Shown here piece after piece: positions 1,222-52,218 of a DNA stretch of 64,000 nucleotides. Position 1 is the first letter of the stretch, and each line of letters begins with the position of its first letter. Source of the stretch: Desulfuromonadales bacterium (GTDB lineage: Bacteria > Desulfobacterota > Desulfuromonadia > Desulfuromonadales > JAGXHI01); contig JAGXHI010000028.1 of the NCBI GenBank assembly GCA_024636295.1, forward strand, positions 21,565 through 85,564. Reading direction: 5' to 3'. The notes under the pieces are model-generated. The model worked only from the letters and a program-made list of their open reading frames with translations, did not search any database and was not told the origin of the DNA. Both the position numbers and the translations under genes were made by a program.

Positions 1222-1604
1222 CGGGATCCGAAGACAGGAAGAATGTTCCGGCGTCGCGCCCATTCGCGGCGAATGAAGCGGCACGGAAAGTCGGACCTTG
1301 AGAGATAAGGGTTGGAGCTGCACATGAAATTTTCGATCATATCCCGCCGGGTCCGTTCGACGTCCTCGCCGCTCACTCCCATTTTTTCAATTTTGCGGGT
1401 AGAAGTTACCCCTTCTCCGAATTCTTCCCTGGCACGCCGGAGCTCTTCCCCGGGATCTTCGGCGTCTGAAAAATACTCCGGCAGAAGGGGAATCGTGCAG
1501 AGGACTTCGATGCAGATCCGGTGGTAATCTCCAAAATAACGGTTCGATTTATCATAGAACTCGATGATCAATCCGTTACTCAATTTTTCCGTTGCGATTT
1601 TCAT
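1218..1604 (-). CDS. hypothetical protein (128 aa)
   Basis: ORF track. Its stop overlaps the ATG of the downstream methyltransferase (ATGA), suggesting co-translation. No family recognised. Confidence 0.5.
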   Translation of the reverse strand: MKIATEKLSNGLIIEFYDKSNRYFGDYHRICIEVLCTIPLLPEYFSDAEDPGEELRRAREEFGEGVTSTRKIEKMGVSGEDVERTRRDMIENFMCSSNPYLSRSDFPCRFIRREWARRRNILPVFGSR

Positions 1605-4928: not shown

Positions 4929-5995
4929 GATATGGCCTCATAATATTTTTTTATCTGTTCAAAAATTTCTTCCGGCGTAGGCTGGGATCCCGCGCCCGGC
5001 GGACGGCCATACAGGAAGACCTCGGCGTCCCGATGGACGGAAAGGCGCACGTCCTCGACCATCTGTCCGGCGTTGAGCTCCACGCACAGTACCCGGCCGC
5101 AAGTCTCGGTGGCTTTCCTGAAGGCCTGCTCCGGAAAAGGGTAAAGAGTAATCGGCCGCAGAAGACCCACTTGCATTCCGACCTCACGTGCCATTCGAAC
5201 GGCCGTTTTGGAGATTCGGGCCGCGGAGCCGAAGGCCGTGACGATCAGTCGGGCATCCTCCAACTCCACCCCCTCATAGCGAACTTCCTTCTCCTTGAGG
5301 ATTCGATATCGTTCATGAAGCTTCAGGTTGTGCGCCTCAAGTTCTCCGTCTCCAAGATAGAGGGATTTGATGATGCTCTGTTCCTTCCGTCCTCCTTTTC
5401 CGGATACCGCCCAATTTTTGGATGGCAAGCCCGGATTGCGATAAGAATGAGGGACAAGAGCCTCCTTCATCTGTCCGACAACCGAATCACCTAGAATCAT
5501 GGCGGGAATTCGATAGAGATCGGACAGATCAAAAGCAAGCATGGTCAAATCGTACATTTCCTGTACGGAATGAGGTGCCAGGACGATGATATGATAGCCG
5601 CCGTGACCTCCGCCTTTGACCGCCTGAAAGTAATCAGCCTGTGAAGCGTCGATTCCGCCCAGCCCCGGACCCGAGCGGCAGATATTAACGATCAGCCCGG
5701 GGAGTTCGCTCCCGGCCATATAGGAAATCCCCTCCTGCTTCAGAGAAATGCCGGGGCTGGAGGAGGAAGTCATCGCCCGGACTCCGCAGGCGCTCGCCCC
5801 CAGCAACATATTGATAGAGGCGATTTCGCTTTCTGCCTGGATGAATTCCCCGCCGATGCGGGGCAGTTCGCGTGACATGTATTCCGGAATTTCGCTCTGC
5901 GGGGTAATGGGGTACCCGAAATAATACCGACATCCGGCCTCTATTGCGCCCATCGCAAGCGCATCGTTTCCTTTGACGAAAAGTCGCTTATTCAC
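4925..5995 (-). CDS. 2-oxoacid:ferredoxin oxidoreductase, alpha subunit
   Basis: 356 aa. Alpha-subunit-like ([28 protein letters not shown]). Overlaps both the beta and delta genes. Confidence 0.9.
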
Positions 5996-31689: not shown

Positions 31690-33015
31690 ATGGATAACGT
31701 TCTCGCCGCACGCGCCCTGATGGGCGTTTCGCTTGGCTTCCATATCATCTACGCCACCATCGGGGTCGGTCTTCCTCTGATGCTCATGATTGCGGAGGGG
31801 ATCGCTCTTCGCACCGGCCAGGAACTGTATCACCAGATGGCGCGCAGATGGATCCGGCCCGCAGCGGTTCTTTTTGCTATCGGCGCCGTCTCGGGCACCA
31901 TTCTTTCTTTCGAGCTTGGCTTTCTGTGGCCCCGGTTCATGGAATTCAGCGGCCCCATGATCGGACTTCCCTTCTGGATGGAGGGATACGCATTCTTTAC
32001 GGAAGCGATATTCCTCGCCCTCTATCTTTATGGGGCCGCACGTCTCTCCCGGAAAGCCCTTTTTCTCTGCACGATTCCCATGGCTGTCGCTGCCGCGGCT
32101 TCGGCTGTTTTCGTCATCAGCGCGAATTCATGGATGAACACCCCCTCCGGGTTCACCCTGGAAGCGGGATCTCTTGCAAACGTCAGCCCCCTGAAAGCCA
32201 TGGCCAATCCCGCCTGGGCGCACCAGGCGGTCCATGGAACGGTTGCCGCCTACGTGGCGACCTGTTTTGCCATGGCGGGAGTATACGCCCTTGCTCTGCT
32301 CCGTGGAAAGGCCTCGGAATATAATCGAAAAGCCCTGACACTCTCCCTGGCAGTGGGGACCATTTTCCTCCCATTCATGCTGATATCCGGAGACTGGGCT
32401 TCCGCCTTTCTGGCCAAACATGAAAAAGCCAAGCTTGCGGCGGCCGAATCACACTTCAAAACCATGTCGGGCGCACCGCTCACAATTGGCGGATGGCCTG
32501 ATCTGGAAGCGGAGCGGGTCCGGTTCGGAATCGAGATCCCTTATGCCTTGAGTCTTCTCGCTCATCGAGATCCGTTTGCCGAAGTGACGGGGCTCGATGC
32601 CTTCCCTCCCGACCAGAGGCCCGACCCCCGTCTCGTTCATCCATTTTTTACCCTGATGGTGGGGGGCTTTTTCATTATGGCTGCCGCCGCAGTCGCCTTT
32701 TGGTGGCGACTTTGGCGTGGAAAGGGTATCCCGGAGACTAAAAATCTCATGCGCTTGATTCTGATCGCTTCTCCCTTCGGGCTTATCGCCCTGGAGAGCG
32801 GGTGGCTGGTCACCGAATTCGGACGGCAGCCCTGGGTTGTTATGGATATTATGAAGGTCTCCGAGGGCGCAACGCCCAATGAAGGCATAGGAATCGTTTT
32901 CTTTATTTTCATGGCAGTTTACGCGGCGCTCACAGCTGGTCTTTTTAAAACGTTGATGCGCCGCGGACCGGAAAGAATCGAGGCAACGCAGGAGGGACGC
33001 CGTGTGGACGATTAG
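31690..33015 (+). CDS. cydA: cytochrome bd-type quinol oxidase subunit I
   Basis: ATG 31690 is preferred (GGGAGA upstream). MDNVLAARALMGVSLGFHIIYA N-terminus. Short Q-loop type, about 441 aa. Confidence 0.9.
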   Translation: MDNVLAARALMGVSLGFHIIYATIGVGLPLMLMIAEGIALRTGQELYHQMARRWIRPAAVLFAIGAVSGTILSFELGFLWPRFMEFSGPMIGLPFWMEGYAFFTEAIFLALYLYGAARLSRKALFLCTIPMAVAAAASAVFVISANSWMNTPSGFTLEAGSLANVSPLKAMANPAWAHQAVHGTVAAYVATCFAMAGVYALALLRGKASEYNRKALTLSLAVGTIFLPFMLISGDWASAFLAKHEKAKLAAAESHFKTMSGAPLTIGGWPDLEAERVRFGIEIPYALSLLAHRDPFAEVTGLDAFPPDQRPDPRLVHPFFTLMVGGFFIMAAAAVAFWWRLWRGKGIPETKNLMRLILIASPFGLIALESGWLVTEFGRQPWVVMDIMKVSEGATPNEGIGIVFFIFMAVYAALTAGLFKTLMRRGPERIEATQEGRRVDD

Positions 33016-35593: not shown

Positions 35594-35607
35594 ATGATGT
35601 GATGCGA

Positions 35608-35681
35608 ACAAAAAAAGCCCCGAAAGCAGGAGGGAAAAAACTTTCAGGGCTAAAGAGGAAGCTAGCTTCCTTGCTAGTGTT
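35608..35681 (-). ncRNA. sRNA candidate A (or 3' terminator module) with CCCUCCU loop
   Basis: Minus strand: TTGACA (35717-35712), 18-nt spacer, TATAGT (35693-35688). Then hairpin AGGAAG-CUAG-CUUCCU. Then an 11-bp terminator stem with loop UUUUUUCCCUCCUG followed by U7. Confidence 0.45.
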
Positions 35682-44283: not shown

Positions 44284-44607
44284 ATGAGGGCCGAAGGTAA
44301 TATTTTTCGGGACATTCCATTCAGCCCTGCCGAGGAAGAAACCCTCTCCATTCTTTCGACCAGGAATCTGCGGATCGAGCGCATTGTTTCAACGGGCCAG
44401 GCATCGGCCGAGGGATTCTGGTATGAGCAAAAGGAGAATGAATGGATTGTGGTATTGAGGGGGCGCGGAGTTATCGAATACGAGGATGGATCCTTGACCG
44501 AGTTGGGAGAAGGAGACTGGTTGCATATTCCAGCCCGACTCCGGCATCGTGTCAAAGAAACCTCTTCCGATAGACCGACCGTCTGGCTGGCAGTATTTCA
44601 CCGGTAA
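44284..44607 (+). CDS. cupin domain protein
   Basis: 107 aa. Cupin barrel (EWIVVLRGRGVIEYEDGS...GDWLHIPARLRHRV). Confidence 0.7.
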   Translation: MRAEGNIFRDIPFSPAEEETLSILSTRNLRIERIVSTGQASAEGFWYEQKENEWIVVLRGRGVIEYEDGSLTELGEGDWLHIPARLRHRVKETSSDRPTVWLAVFHR

Positions 44608-45124: not shown

Positions 45125-45232
45125 TGAAAACAAAAAAAGCCCCGAAAGCAGGAGGGAAGCCTTTCGGGGCAAAATTGGAAACCCGCGTCCGGGTTTCCAG
45201 GAAATTCTAGGGTAAATTAAGGTAAATTCTGA
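45125..45232 (-). ncRNA. sRNA candidate B with CCCUCCU terminator loop
   Basis: Minus strand: TTGACA (45265-45260), 17-nt spacer, TAATAT (45242-45237). Its 5' region has three AAUUU(A)CC repeats. A 9-bp hairpin GGAAACCCG-GACG-CGGGUUUCC follows. The terminator is GCCCCGAAAG/CUUUCGGGGC plus U7. Confidence 0.55.
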
Positions 45233-45409
45233 AATTATATTACCTCATGTGCAGTAAAATGTCAATTTTGCCTCCAAGGCTCCAAGCTACCGTTCTTAAA
45301 GGTTTTTATCGATCTCGATAACCGCTTCGTACGGCTCGAAAATGTATTCAAAAGATCCTTTTCGTCTCTTTGCCTCCTGTGGTACATTGACGAGTAAGGA
45401 GGACGCCCG

Positions 45410-47947: not shown

Positions 47948-48811
47948 ATGGCGCCCAAAACATCCTGGACCGGCAATCTGAAACTGTCTCTGATATCTGT
48001 TCCCGTCCGTTTATACCGGGCTGTCAGCGCCACCTCCCGTATCAGCCTCAACATGCTCCATGAGGGATGCAATCGACGGATTCATTACCGTTATGACTGT
48101 CCGGTGCATGGCACGGTCGACAAAAACGATATCGTCAAGGGATACCAGTACGAAAAGGGCAAGTACGTCGTTTTAGATGAAGAAACCCTGGGCAATGTCA
48201 AACTGGAGACGACAAAAACCATGGAGATTGTGCAATTCGTCCGGGAGGAAGAACTGGATCCAGTTTACCTGGGCACTCCCTACTACCTGGCGCCGGACGG
48301 TCCGGTAGCCGAAGAGGCTTTCAGCGTCCTTCGGGAAGCATTCAGGCTAAGCGGGAAAGTTGGAATCGGGCGGGTGACCATGGCCGGCCGGGAGCATATA
48401 GCTGCCATCCAGCCCAGGGACAAGGGATTTGTCCTGACAACCCTTCATTATGCAAAAGAAGTAAGAAATGCCGGAATTTACTTCGAGGGCATCCATGGTC
48501 GGGAGATCGCCCGGGATGAACTGGACCTGGCGCAACAGTTGATTGAGAAAAAGACCCGGACCTTCCATCCCGAGGAGTTCAGGGATCGTTATGATGAGGC
48601 GCTCAGCGAAGTCATCCAGGCGAAACTGGCGGGGAAGGAACCCACGGTTGTTGCTGAAGAGCAACCCGGGAAAGTGGTCGATTTTATGGAGGCCCTCAAG
48701 CGAAGCATCGCACAGGAAGGCGAAACCAGGCCCAGAGAAAAGAGCCCATCTCCTCCTCGGGGCAAACGCCGTGCACCAACCGAGAAAAAGAAACAAAGCG
48801 GAAAGGGATAA
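47948..48811 (+). CDS. ku: Ku protein (bacterial NHEJ DNA end-binding)
   Basis: 287 aa. SWTGNLKLSLISVPVRLY, KGYQYEKGKYVVLDEE, and a lysine-rich C-terminal tail. Confidence 0.9.
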   Translation: MAPKTSWTGNLKLSLISVPVRLYRAVSATSRISLNMLHEGCNRRIHYRYDCPVHGTVDKNDIVKGYQYEKGKYVVLDEETLGNVKLETTKTMEIVQFVREEELDPVYLGTPYYLAPDGPVAEEAFSVLREAFRLSGKVGIGRVTMAGREHIAAIQPRDKGFVLTTLHYAKEVRNAGIYFEGIHGREIARDELDLAQQLIEKKTRTFHPEEFRDRYDEALSEVIQAKLAGKEPTVVAEEQPGKVVDFMEALKRSIAQEGETRPREKSPSPPRGKRRAPTEKKKQSGKG

Positions 48812-51162: not shown

Positions 51163-52218
51163 ATGTCCGTTCGAGCGAATTATTTCAAGACAGGGCTCTT
51201 CGTTATCATCGGGATCGTCATCGCAGTTGCGGCGGTGGTCATTCTCGGCGTGGGCGCCATTCTCCGTGAGGAGATAATGGTCGAGTCCTACTTTGAGGAT
51301 TCGGTGCAGGGACTGGATGTGGGATCCCCGGTAAAATTCCGTGGCGTGCAGATCGGCAAGGTGGATACGATCGCCCTTGTCAATCAATATTATCCGACCG
51401 ACCGCCGCTACGTCCTCATCAGAATGGCCCTGTTTTCGGATGTTTTCCTAGTGGAGAAGTCGGATAATGGAGACGGTCTCAAAAAACTGATCCGGGACGG
51501 TTTACGGGTCCGATTGAATTTTCAGGGAGTCACCGGAGCCGCGTATATCGAGGCGGATTACCTCGAACCGGATAGATATCCTCCCCTGGTCTTCAACTGG
51601 GAGCCCAGATATCCGTATATCCCTTCAGCCCCGAGCATCATCACCCGTCTGTCGGAATCGGCGGACAAGATCATGAGGAATCTGGAGAAGATCAATCTAG
51701 AAGGCCTCATTGAGACGGTGGAGAAATCCCTTCAGGCGGTCACCAGTGTTCTTGATGAAACCAACGTTGCCCAGATCGGAGATGAAACCGAAAAACTTCT
51801 CTCGGAGCTCCGAGAAACCAATCGTCAGATAAACTCTCTGGTGGAAAAAATCGATTTGGAACCGCTCCTGAAAGAAGCTTCCGCAACTGTCGCCGATACG
51901 CGTCAGCTGGTTCAAGATGTTCGAAAGCCCCTGGAGAGCTTTCTCGCTACCTCGACGGAGGCAGCGAACAGTGTCAACCGTATCGTAGGGAATCTCGAAT
52001 CTTCAGGGGACCTTTCTGCTGCTCTTTCCCGACTGCAGAATACCGCTCGCCGACTGGACAATATGGTTTCCGGACAGCAGGTGGATATCGAGACCATCGT
52101 CGAGAACTTCAGGATATTCTCGGAAAATTTTCGCGAGGTCTCGGAGGAACTCTCAAGGAATCCCCGCAAATTTATTTTCGGCGGACCACCGCCGAGGCCT
52201 GAATCAGGAGGGAACTGA
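51163..52218 (+). CDS. mlaD: MCE/MlaD-domain substrate-binding protein
   Basis: 351 aa. An N-terminal TM segment, an MCE domain (GLDVGSPVKFRGVQIGKV), and a long helical C-terminus. Confidence 0.85.
   Translation: MSVRANYFKTGLFVIIGIVIAVAAVVILGVGAILREEIMVESYFEDSVQGLDVGSPVKFRGVQIGKVDTIALVNQYYPTDRRYVLIRMALFSDVFLVEKSDNGDGLKKLIRDGLRVRLNFQGVTGAAYIEADYLEPDRYPPLVFNWEPRYPYIPSAPSIITRLSESADKIMRNLEKINLEGLIETVEKSLQAVTSVLDETNVAQIGDETEKLLSELRETNRQINSLVEKIDLEPLLKEASATVADTRQLVQDVRKPLESFLATSTEAANSVNRIVGNLESSGDLSAALSRLQNTARRLDNMVSGQQVDIETIVENFRIFSENFREVSEELSRNPRKFIFGGPPPRPESGGN

Follow-up and report, generated by a model that had tools for sequence, protein, structure and literature searches.

Introduction

The atoC RNA motif was described by Weinberg et al. 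(2010, Genome Biol 11:R31; PMC2864571) from an 8-sequence seed alignment of Geobacter and Pelobacter. The seeds open at their 5' edge with a sequence resembling a -10 box (GGUAUACU / GGUAUAAU) and continue with an A-rich tail ending AAGAGUUGC, a hairpin GAGGGUC-N4-GAUCCUC, the linker AUUAU and a terminator whose loop reads UU(K)CCCUCCUA (PMC2864571). Representatives were placed in what may be the 5' UTRs of genes for oxidoreductase-domain proteins, response regulators or FolK, and the motif was rated a probable cis-regulatory RNA (PMC2864571). We found no functional or experimental study of any atoC RNA in the literature searched.

C-rich or C/U-rich loops are used for target recognition by sRNAs of other bacteria. 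The short sRNA sX13 of Xanthomonas pairs through C-rich loops with G-rich stretches in or close to ribosome-binding sites. In RepG of Helicobacter pylori, the C/U-rich loop of the sRNA's own terminator hairpin is the seed and pairs with a G-rich tract in an mRNA leader. RsaE and RoxS of the Firmicutes expose C-rich motifs that pair with the Shine-Dalgarno (SD) regions of several mRNAs. To our knowledge, few sRNAs have been characterised in Geobacter-type metal reducers.

Here we analysed a 64,000-nt stretch of a Desulfuromonadales contig (the window), in which a first-pass annotation made from the letters alone had pointed to a candidate sRNA, called sRNA B below. We consider it reasonably likely that minus-strand positions 45265-45132 of the window form a free-standing sRNA gene of a divergent atoC lineage, whose product acts in trans as a translational repressor through an anti-SD loop. 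Judged from sequence comparison, the conserved feature at B is real; we infer its transcription, its trans mode of action and the anti-SD pairing.

A predicted sRNA gene next to a DUF4126 gene

The promoter of sRNA B was read on the minus strand. Its -35 hexamer TTGACA (45265-45260) is separated by a 17-nt spacer from the -10 element TAATAT (45242-45237), which is overlapped by a perfect TATAAT (45239-45234) at 20-nt spacing from the -35. All three elements had been proposed in the first-pass annotation and are present as it described them. In a consensus scan this promoter was the top-ranked promoter-like site in the 40-50 kb part of the window, scoring 10/12. With a start placed ~7 nt past the -10 and an end at the U7 tract, the predicted transcript is ~99 nt long (45230-45132, minus strand), and the earlier figure of ~105 nt after the promoter is shortened to this extent. 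A second promoter-like site, TTCAGA-18-TAGAAT (45233-45204), was set aside: transcription from it would start inside hairpin 1, and we consider it incidental because its TAGAAT coincides with the A/U-rich RNA tract of the family.

The predicted RNA begins with a single-stranded 5' region (45229-45200, minus strand) that carries three repeats, considered below. It is followed by hairpin 1, GGAAACCCG-GACG-CGGGUUUCC, with 9 bp (45198-45177, minus strand), which the pair U45199-A45176 extends to 10 bp (45199-45176). The linker AAUUUU then leads to a predicted intrinsic terminator hairpin with a 10-bp stem (45170-45139, minus strand). Its 5' arm GCCCCGAAAG (45170-45161) and 3' arm CUUUCGGGGC (45148-45139) enclose the 12-nt loop GCUUCCCUCCUG (45160-45149), and a U7 tract follows (45138-45132). 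Within the loop, CCCUCCU (45156-45150) is a putative anti-SD mimic and the proposed seed. The two hairpins and the U7 tract thus bear out the structure that the first-pass annotation had drawn, with 9-10 bp for hairpin 1. A predicted 103-nt B RNA folds into exactly these two hairpins (MFE -36.8 kcal/mol), with z = -4.4 relative to dinucleotide shuffles, 0/200 of which were as stable. The terminator loop is unpaired in the predicted folds of both B and its paralogue A, described below. A 66-aa ORF with a TTG start (45172-44972), beginning inside the terminator, was rejected as a gene, as it has no ribosome-binding site and spans the terminator.

The surroundings of B were also as first described, a gene-free stretch between a decayed peptidase fragment and a DUF4126 gene. 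Pfam placed the DUF4126 gene on the plus strand from 45410, divergent from B. Downstream of B on the same strand lies only a 32-residue C-terminal remnant of an S58 peptidase (DmpA-type; Peptidase_S58, 44946-44806, minus strand, covering profile positions 274-305 of 307 only), and then a cupin gene on the plus strand (44284-44607), convergent with B. The loss of the S58 gene directly downstream of B suggests a past deletion or rearrangement here. Because the DUF4126 gene is divergent, the B terminator has no co-directional upstream gene to serve, and no T-run follows the stem when it is read on the plus strand. A Ku-domain gene (non-homologous end joining; 47948-48811, plus strand) lies 2.7 kb from B, with arginyl-tRNA-protein transferase and NUDIX genes between.

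A paralogue in the window and the relation to atoC RNA

A BLAST search of the region returned one other significant match in the window: positions 45129-45158 and 35607-35636 are identical over 30 nt on the same strand. The first-pass annotation was therefore correct in reporting 30 identical nucleotides common to two elements, and this is the sole such match in the window. The second element, sRNA A, is a predicted atoC-like sRNA gene on the minus strand (35717-35610), 9.5 kb from B. Its promoter consists of TTGACA (35717-35712), a 17-nt spacer and TTATAG (35694-35689). The short hairpin 1, AGGAAG-CUAG-CUUCCU, is followed by a terminator near-identical to that of B, with the loop UUUUUUCCCUCCUG, ending UUCCCUCCUG, and a U7 tract. 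A lies antisense between a methyltransferase gene and a multihaem cytochrome gene, which are both on the plus strand and 676 nt apart.

At the Rfam gathering thresholds only a tRNA was reported in the window, and neither B nor A. In E-value mode, the top match of B was atoC RNA (RF01733) at 31.9 bits, covering model positions 1-93 of 93 over 45132-45228 of the window, and the top match of A was the same model, also full length (1-93), at 25.8 bits; both scores are below the RF01733 gathering threshold of 50 bits. Both alignments take in the CCCUCCU loop, and that of B forms both helices, in agreement with the MFE fold. B has the atoC architecture of a single-stranded 5' tail, hairpin 1, a short U-rich linker and an intrinsic terminator, and the CCCUCCU terminator loop of the atoC seeds is present in both B and A. 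Neither copy has the location of the seeds in the 5' UTR of a response-regulator, oxidoreductase-domain or folK gene.

The likeness of atoC RNA to B and A extends over the -10 box, the A/U-rich tail, hairpin 1, a U-rich linker of 4-6 nt and a terminator loop UU(N)CCCUCCU(R), and the taxonomic neighbourhood appears similar (delta-proteobacteria / Desulfuromonadales-like). There are also differences. Hairpin 1 of B and A has another sequence with a GGACGC apex, deleted in A; TTGACA stands in place of TTGCNN as the -35; the terminator stem has only 10 bp and no bulge, and is thus the shorter one; and neither copy lies in a 5' UTR. B additionally has a longer 5' tail with the triple repeat. Rfam gives atoC RNA the type cis-regulatory, but judging by the context of B and A an independent sRNA is the better reading. 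Since the curated threshold is not reached, we file B and A as a divergent variant of the atoC lineage and not as Rfam members. The first-pass suggestion of a small paralogous sRNA family therefore stands as regards the paralogy of B and A and the conserved terminator loop, but the family is large and was already in Rfam as RF01733.

The second-best Rfam match of B was sX13 (RF02232) of Xanthomonas, over the full model at 25 bits. This match gives no evidence of homology, because many pairs in the alignment are non-canonical. sX13 comes from another phylum, and CCCC loops cap its three hairpins; it resembles B in its mode of action, as proposed here, and not in family. RepG shares the use of a terminator loop, but it is unrelated in sequence, occurs in epsilon-proteobacteria and targets a homopolymeric G-repeat instead of an SD site. 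RsaE and RoxS fold differently, are unrelated to B in sequence and were absent from the Rfam matches.

Metagenomic relatives and the GGACGC subgroup

We searched a metagenome collection with a degenerate pattern over the loop and 3' arm, CCCTCCTRSTNNCNRGGSNNTTTTT, which fits the atoC seeds as well as A and B, and obtained at least 120 matches to this loop/terminator pattern. About 100 of the 114 listed matches with enough upstream sequence (110 nt inspected) had the whole architecture of promoter, A/U-rich tail, hairpin 1 and CCCUCCU-loop terminator. Among the matches listed, 74 were of a Geobacter type, with a -35 of TTGCNN and a GAGGGUC..GAUCCUC hairpin; 26 formed a second type, the GGACGC subgroup, with a -35 of TTGAC(N) and a variable lower stem in hairpin 1; and 14 belonged to neither. 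The atoC lineage occurs in the genomes of Geobacter and Pelobacter and, beyond these, on many environmental contigs. It has stood in Rfam since 2010 as an 8-sequence "cis-reg" candidate and is, with at least 120 environmental-contig matches, far larger than this.

For the GGACGC subgroup we took the 26 sequences of the classifier, added one that it had missed (L092) and removed one duplicate, leaving 26 distinct sequences. Most of them have the apex CYGGACGCRG, and the corresponding apex of B is CCGGACGCGG. The subgroup terminator, GCCCUGGAUGAC...GUCUCCAGGGU, contains one bulge, and the stem of B differs from it and is one pair shorter (GCCCCGAAAG/CUUUCGGGGC). B thus combines the subgroup apex with TTGACA. 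A has TTGACA and lacks the apex; its hairpin 1 (AGGAAGCU-AGCUUCCU) is that of one subgroup locus, L136 (AGGAAGCU-GGACGC-AGCUUCCU), with the apex deleted.

A covariance model, R1, was built from the 26 subgroup sequences with A and B left out. In a scan of the window, R1 recovered B at 61.0 bits (E 4.6e-15, over 45131-45213) and A at 42.4 bits (E 8.7e-10), and the next match in the window had an E-value of 0.22. There were 0 R1 matches in 80 unrelated DUF4126 loci (0.47 Mb of control DNA). Training members of R1 scored 67-96 bits (most of them 72-96), except two divergent ones at 57-58 bits, and Geobacter-type members scored 46-64 bits. With the Rfam atoC model, four Geobacter-type loci scored 75-99 bits and sixteen second-type loci 35-50 bits, one of them reaching the threshold. 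B scores 29 bits higher, and A 17 bits higher, with R1 than with the atoC model. Taken together, the two sets of scores form a continuum in which B and A are outermost and nearer to the second type. B is probably a member of the GGACGC-apex subgroup of the atoC lineage, and A a paralogue from the same subgroup.

According to the first-pass annotation, a lack of conservation beyond this genome would have spoken against its reading of B as an sRNA. Such conservation is seen in at least ~100 metagenomic relatives with the promoter, both hairpins and the CCCUCCU loop, and in the recovery of both copies by a model built without them. As the subgroup falls below the Rfam threshold, it has been missed by routine annotation.

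We also looked for orthologues of B next to DUF4126 genes. The closest DUF4126 relatives among GTDB species genomes came from Desulfuromonadales, Desulfurivibrio and 'delta proteobacterium' MAGs, mixed with gamma-proteobacterial matches, and were only 63-67% identical. Neither the pattern nor R1 detected the element in 80 loci around DUF4126 homologues from GTDB species genomes; because the nearest relatives are only ~65% identical, these empty loci say little about orthologues of B. The exact DUF4126 protein was matched only on a 1.7-kb Logan contig, which comes from the same organism and carries an identical copy of the sRNA; no close orthologue of B itself turned up.

Covariation and the conserved unit

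Both helices are supported by covariation. In an alignment of the 26 sequences made with MAFFT only, 88% of cells form standard pairs, compared with 38-58% when the partners are slid, and double changes occur at ten pairs. In an alignment of 99 distinct sequences including A and B (A3), which was fitted to the model, 96% of cells pair compared with 34-48% when slid. Double compensatory changes were found there at 16/21 pairs, including all 10 of hairpin 1. Together with the relatives and the R1 recovery, the covariation of both helices supports the first-pass reading of B as an independently transcribed sRNA, with the transcript itself a predicted one.

The CCCUCCU loop is invariant in the 99 aligned members, but the search pattern required CCCTCCT. 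Since the pattern fixed this heptamer and several positions of the 3' arm, it is partly circular to find the loop and much of the terminator stem invariant. Conservation of the loop independent of the pattern is limited to 7/8 published seeds, found without our search, and to A and B.

The promoter can be followed in the same way. GGACGC-subgroup members have TTGAC(A/G/T) at the equivalent place, and a TTGACA-N16-18-TATAAT match of at least 9/12 at a consistent upstream distance was found in 22/25 subgroup members and in 2/25 shuffles. In Geobacter-type members the -10 is mostly TATAAT or TATACT. As far as these sequence matches indicate, the promoter belongs to the conserved unit.

The 5' tail of sRNA B

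The three AAUUU(A)CC-type repeats that had been noted in the single-stranded 5' region of B are present as described: GAAUUUACC (45229-45221), UAAUUUACCC (45219-45210) and GAAUUUCC (45207-45200), all on the minus strand and spaced 10-12 nt apart. The third copy aligns with the A/U-rich tract of the family directly 5' of hairpin 1, which reads AAGAGUUGC / AAGAAUUGC in the atoC seeds. Among composition-matched shuffles, 0.3% contain an exact direct repeat of 8 nt inside 34 nt, and the same is true of 0.4% of the 34-nt windows of this sequence, so that the triple repeat is above chance, though only modestly. Tandem Repeats Finder did not call the repeats. AATTTMCC had 13 matches across the window against 8.9 expected, which is no enrichment, so that the word is unusual only in its local clustering at B.

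The repeats are absent from the 5' regions of the 96 other family members. The first-pass proposal of a conserved seed accordingly holds for the CCCUCCU terminator loop, which is kept in the relatives, and not for the AAUUU(A)CC repeats. Sequence comparison thus suggests that the repeats are a B-specific elaboration of the A/U-rich tail of the family.

[AT]TTTAC is found in 14/96 members, nearly always upstream of the -35 in a position resembling an UP element, and never in the 5' tail of the RNA. In some Geobacter-type members (L133 and L145, with 12 further members), direct repeats A(A/T)TTTAC(Y) stand ~11-12 nt apart just upstream of the -35 and may be UP-element-like or an activator site. 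The same word recurs within the predicted transcribed 5' tail of B.

Gene context of the family

Crude ORF calling found the next downstream gene co-directional in 43/68 Geobacter-type and 9/21 second-type loci, and convergent in 25/68 and 12/21, about 40% overall. The contexts identified with Pfam included an Amt ammonium transporter gene, the sRNA and a convergent Rrf2 regulator gene; an epimerase gene, the sRNA and an HPPK (FolK) gene; the sRNA ahead of the 'atoC' gene, which encodes a sigma-54 activator that also has an Fe-hydrogenase-like domain; the sRNA and a convergent CysRS gene; and elsewhere a NiFe hydrogenase gene. By Pfam, the functions of the downstream genes are mutually unrelated across loci.

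Two features recurred near the relatives. Many GGACGC-subgroup loci (L118, L136, L153, L160, L162, L182, L195, L134 and L180) have an Amt gene on the same strand, the sRNA directly after it and a convergent Rrf2-family gene, a context that could hint at a link to nitrogen or redox regulation. SAM-I riboswitches (71-78 bits) were found near the sRNA gene in L182 (1570-1702, plus strand) and L101 (5381-5507, plus strand); the one in L182 is divergent and ~115 nt away.

Proposed mechanism and alternative explanations

CCCUCCU contains the CCUCCU core of the 16S rRNA anti-SD, and the terminator loop that holds it is the sole strictly conserved single-stranded element of the family. As we propose for a trans-acting repressor, a sigma-70-type promoter would drive a ~99-nt transcript that ends at its own intrinsic terminator. 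The exposed terminator loop of 11-14 nt would present CCCUCCU, the same C/U core as in the 16S rRNA anti-SD tail, and would pair with AGGAGGG-type ribosome-binding sites of selected mRNAs, blocking 30S binding. Hairpin 1, like the terminator and its U-tail, would stabilise the RNA and might offer a handle to a chaperone.

Outside the sRNA genes, the complement of the loop shared by A and B (UUCCCUCCUGCUU) has three perfect matches of at least 10 nt in the window, each of 10-11 nt. All three lie at ribosome-binding sites, and in each case the start codon of an ORF of at least 200 aa follows 6-11 nt downstream; the ORF products were named by eye. The candidate targets are a 2-oxoacid:ferredoxin oxidoreductase subunit-like ORF with an ATG at 5719 (match at 5740-5730, minus strand), a cydB-like ORF with a GTG at 33002 (32988-32997, plus strand) and a 210-aa ORF for a putative lipoprotein with an ATG at 52218 (52205-52214, plus strand). 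As any CCUCC-containing sequence matches SD sites, these three are weak evidence.

An alternative that we regard as improbable is a cis-regulatory 5' leader or attenuator, in which the element would act as a conditional terminator for the downstream gene, or, in transcripts that read through, its anti-SD loop would cover the ribosome-binding site of that gene. The placement of the 8 seeds in potential 5' UTRs by Weinberg et al. (2010; PMC2864571) fits such a role, as do the 43/68 Geobacter-type loci with a co-directional gene, which is often FolK (HPPK) or a sigma-54 activator at a distance of 55-240 nt. The two copies studied here do not: B is followed by only the S58 remnant and the convergent cupin gene, and the gene downstream of A is convergent. 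Since B has no intact co-directional downstream gene and A is antisense, an obligatory leader role is excluded for both. For the family as a whole it is unlikely, given the convergent genes in 25/68 and 12/21 loci and the unrelated functions of the downstream genes; a strong terminator (10-11 bp and U6-8) is also conserved, with no obvious competing antiterminator pairing by eye. The ~60% of Geobacter-type members that lie upstream of a co-directional gene leave room for a cis role in those loci. Overall, the conserved promoter of its own and the frequent convergent gene fit a trans-acting sRNA better than a leader, and the Rfam type 'cis-reg' for atoC is probably wrong. Equally doubtful to us is a protein-binding or sponge RNA, in which the loop, the GGA motifs of hairpin 1 (UGGAAAC and CGGACG in B) or the repeats would titrate a CsrA-like protein, Hfq, ProQ or S1. 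In most of the 26 subgroup members, hairpin 1 does contain two GGA motifs, one on the 5' side of the stem and one at the apex. The family 5' tail is A-rich, and B has three copies of its motif at 10-12-nt spacing. However, the apex is not family-wide: some members have GUGGCA or GGAAAC there, the Geobacter type has a GNRA-like one, and A has lost it; the repeats are confined to B; and known CsrA sponges have many GGA loops.

It is also conceivable, though in our view highly improbable, that there is no RNA gene at B, and that an ordinary or repeated extragenic terminator or REP-like element lies beside a chance promoter, the repeats being a DNA operator of the divergent DUF4126 gene. Terminator-like hairpins are indeed common (18 found and 12 expected in 10 kb), and a response regulator could well bind at repeats with such a 10-bp period. 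Yet there is no co-directional upstream gene for the terminator to serve and no T-run on the plus strand, just two copies occur in 64 kb, and promoter, hairpin 1 and terminator are kept together, with covariation, in ~100 unrelated contigs among those listed.

The trans-acting reading can be widened, tentatively and with a rather low likelihood, to atoC-like RNAs as abundant, multi-copy mimics of the 16S anti-SD in Desulfuromonadota that would compete with ribosomes for a regulon of strong-SD mRNAs. Paralogues would then respond to different promoter inputs, and the lineage-specific AAUUU(A)CC x3 tail of B would be a second, separate binding platform for a protein or target class. Respiratory and redox genes such as cydB and 2-oxoacid:ferredoxin oxidoreductase would be examples of such a regulon.

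Significance and a further sRNA-like element

The finding is an incremental one, as the lineage was already catalogued and is not a new kind of system. What is new here is the divergent subgroup, the much larger family and the evidence against the 'cis-reg' type. If the CCCUCCU loop is an anti-SD seed, the lineage would offer a testable post-transcriptional regulator in Geobacter-type metal reducers.

A third sRNA-like element was seen on several of the metagenomic contigs, at L084:142-219 (minus strand), L107:59-137 (plus), L123:185-258 (plus) and L146:994-1072 and 1483-1561 (both minus). It gave no Rfam match at E <= 0.01 and only 25-31 bits with R1. The element ends in a terminator whose loop is CCCCCUCCUGG; ahead of this stand a conserved CAUCAACG...UUGUUGUGGCAGGCG...CGUUGAUG hairpin and CUUUCGAGAAACCUCUC. 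Its two copies in L146 are 489 nt apart.
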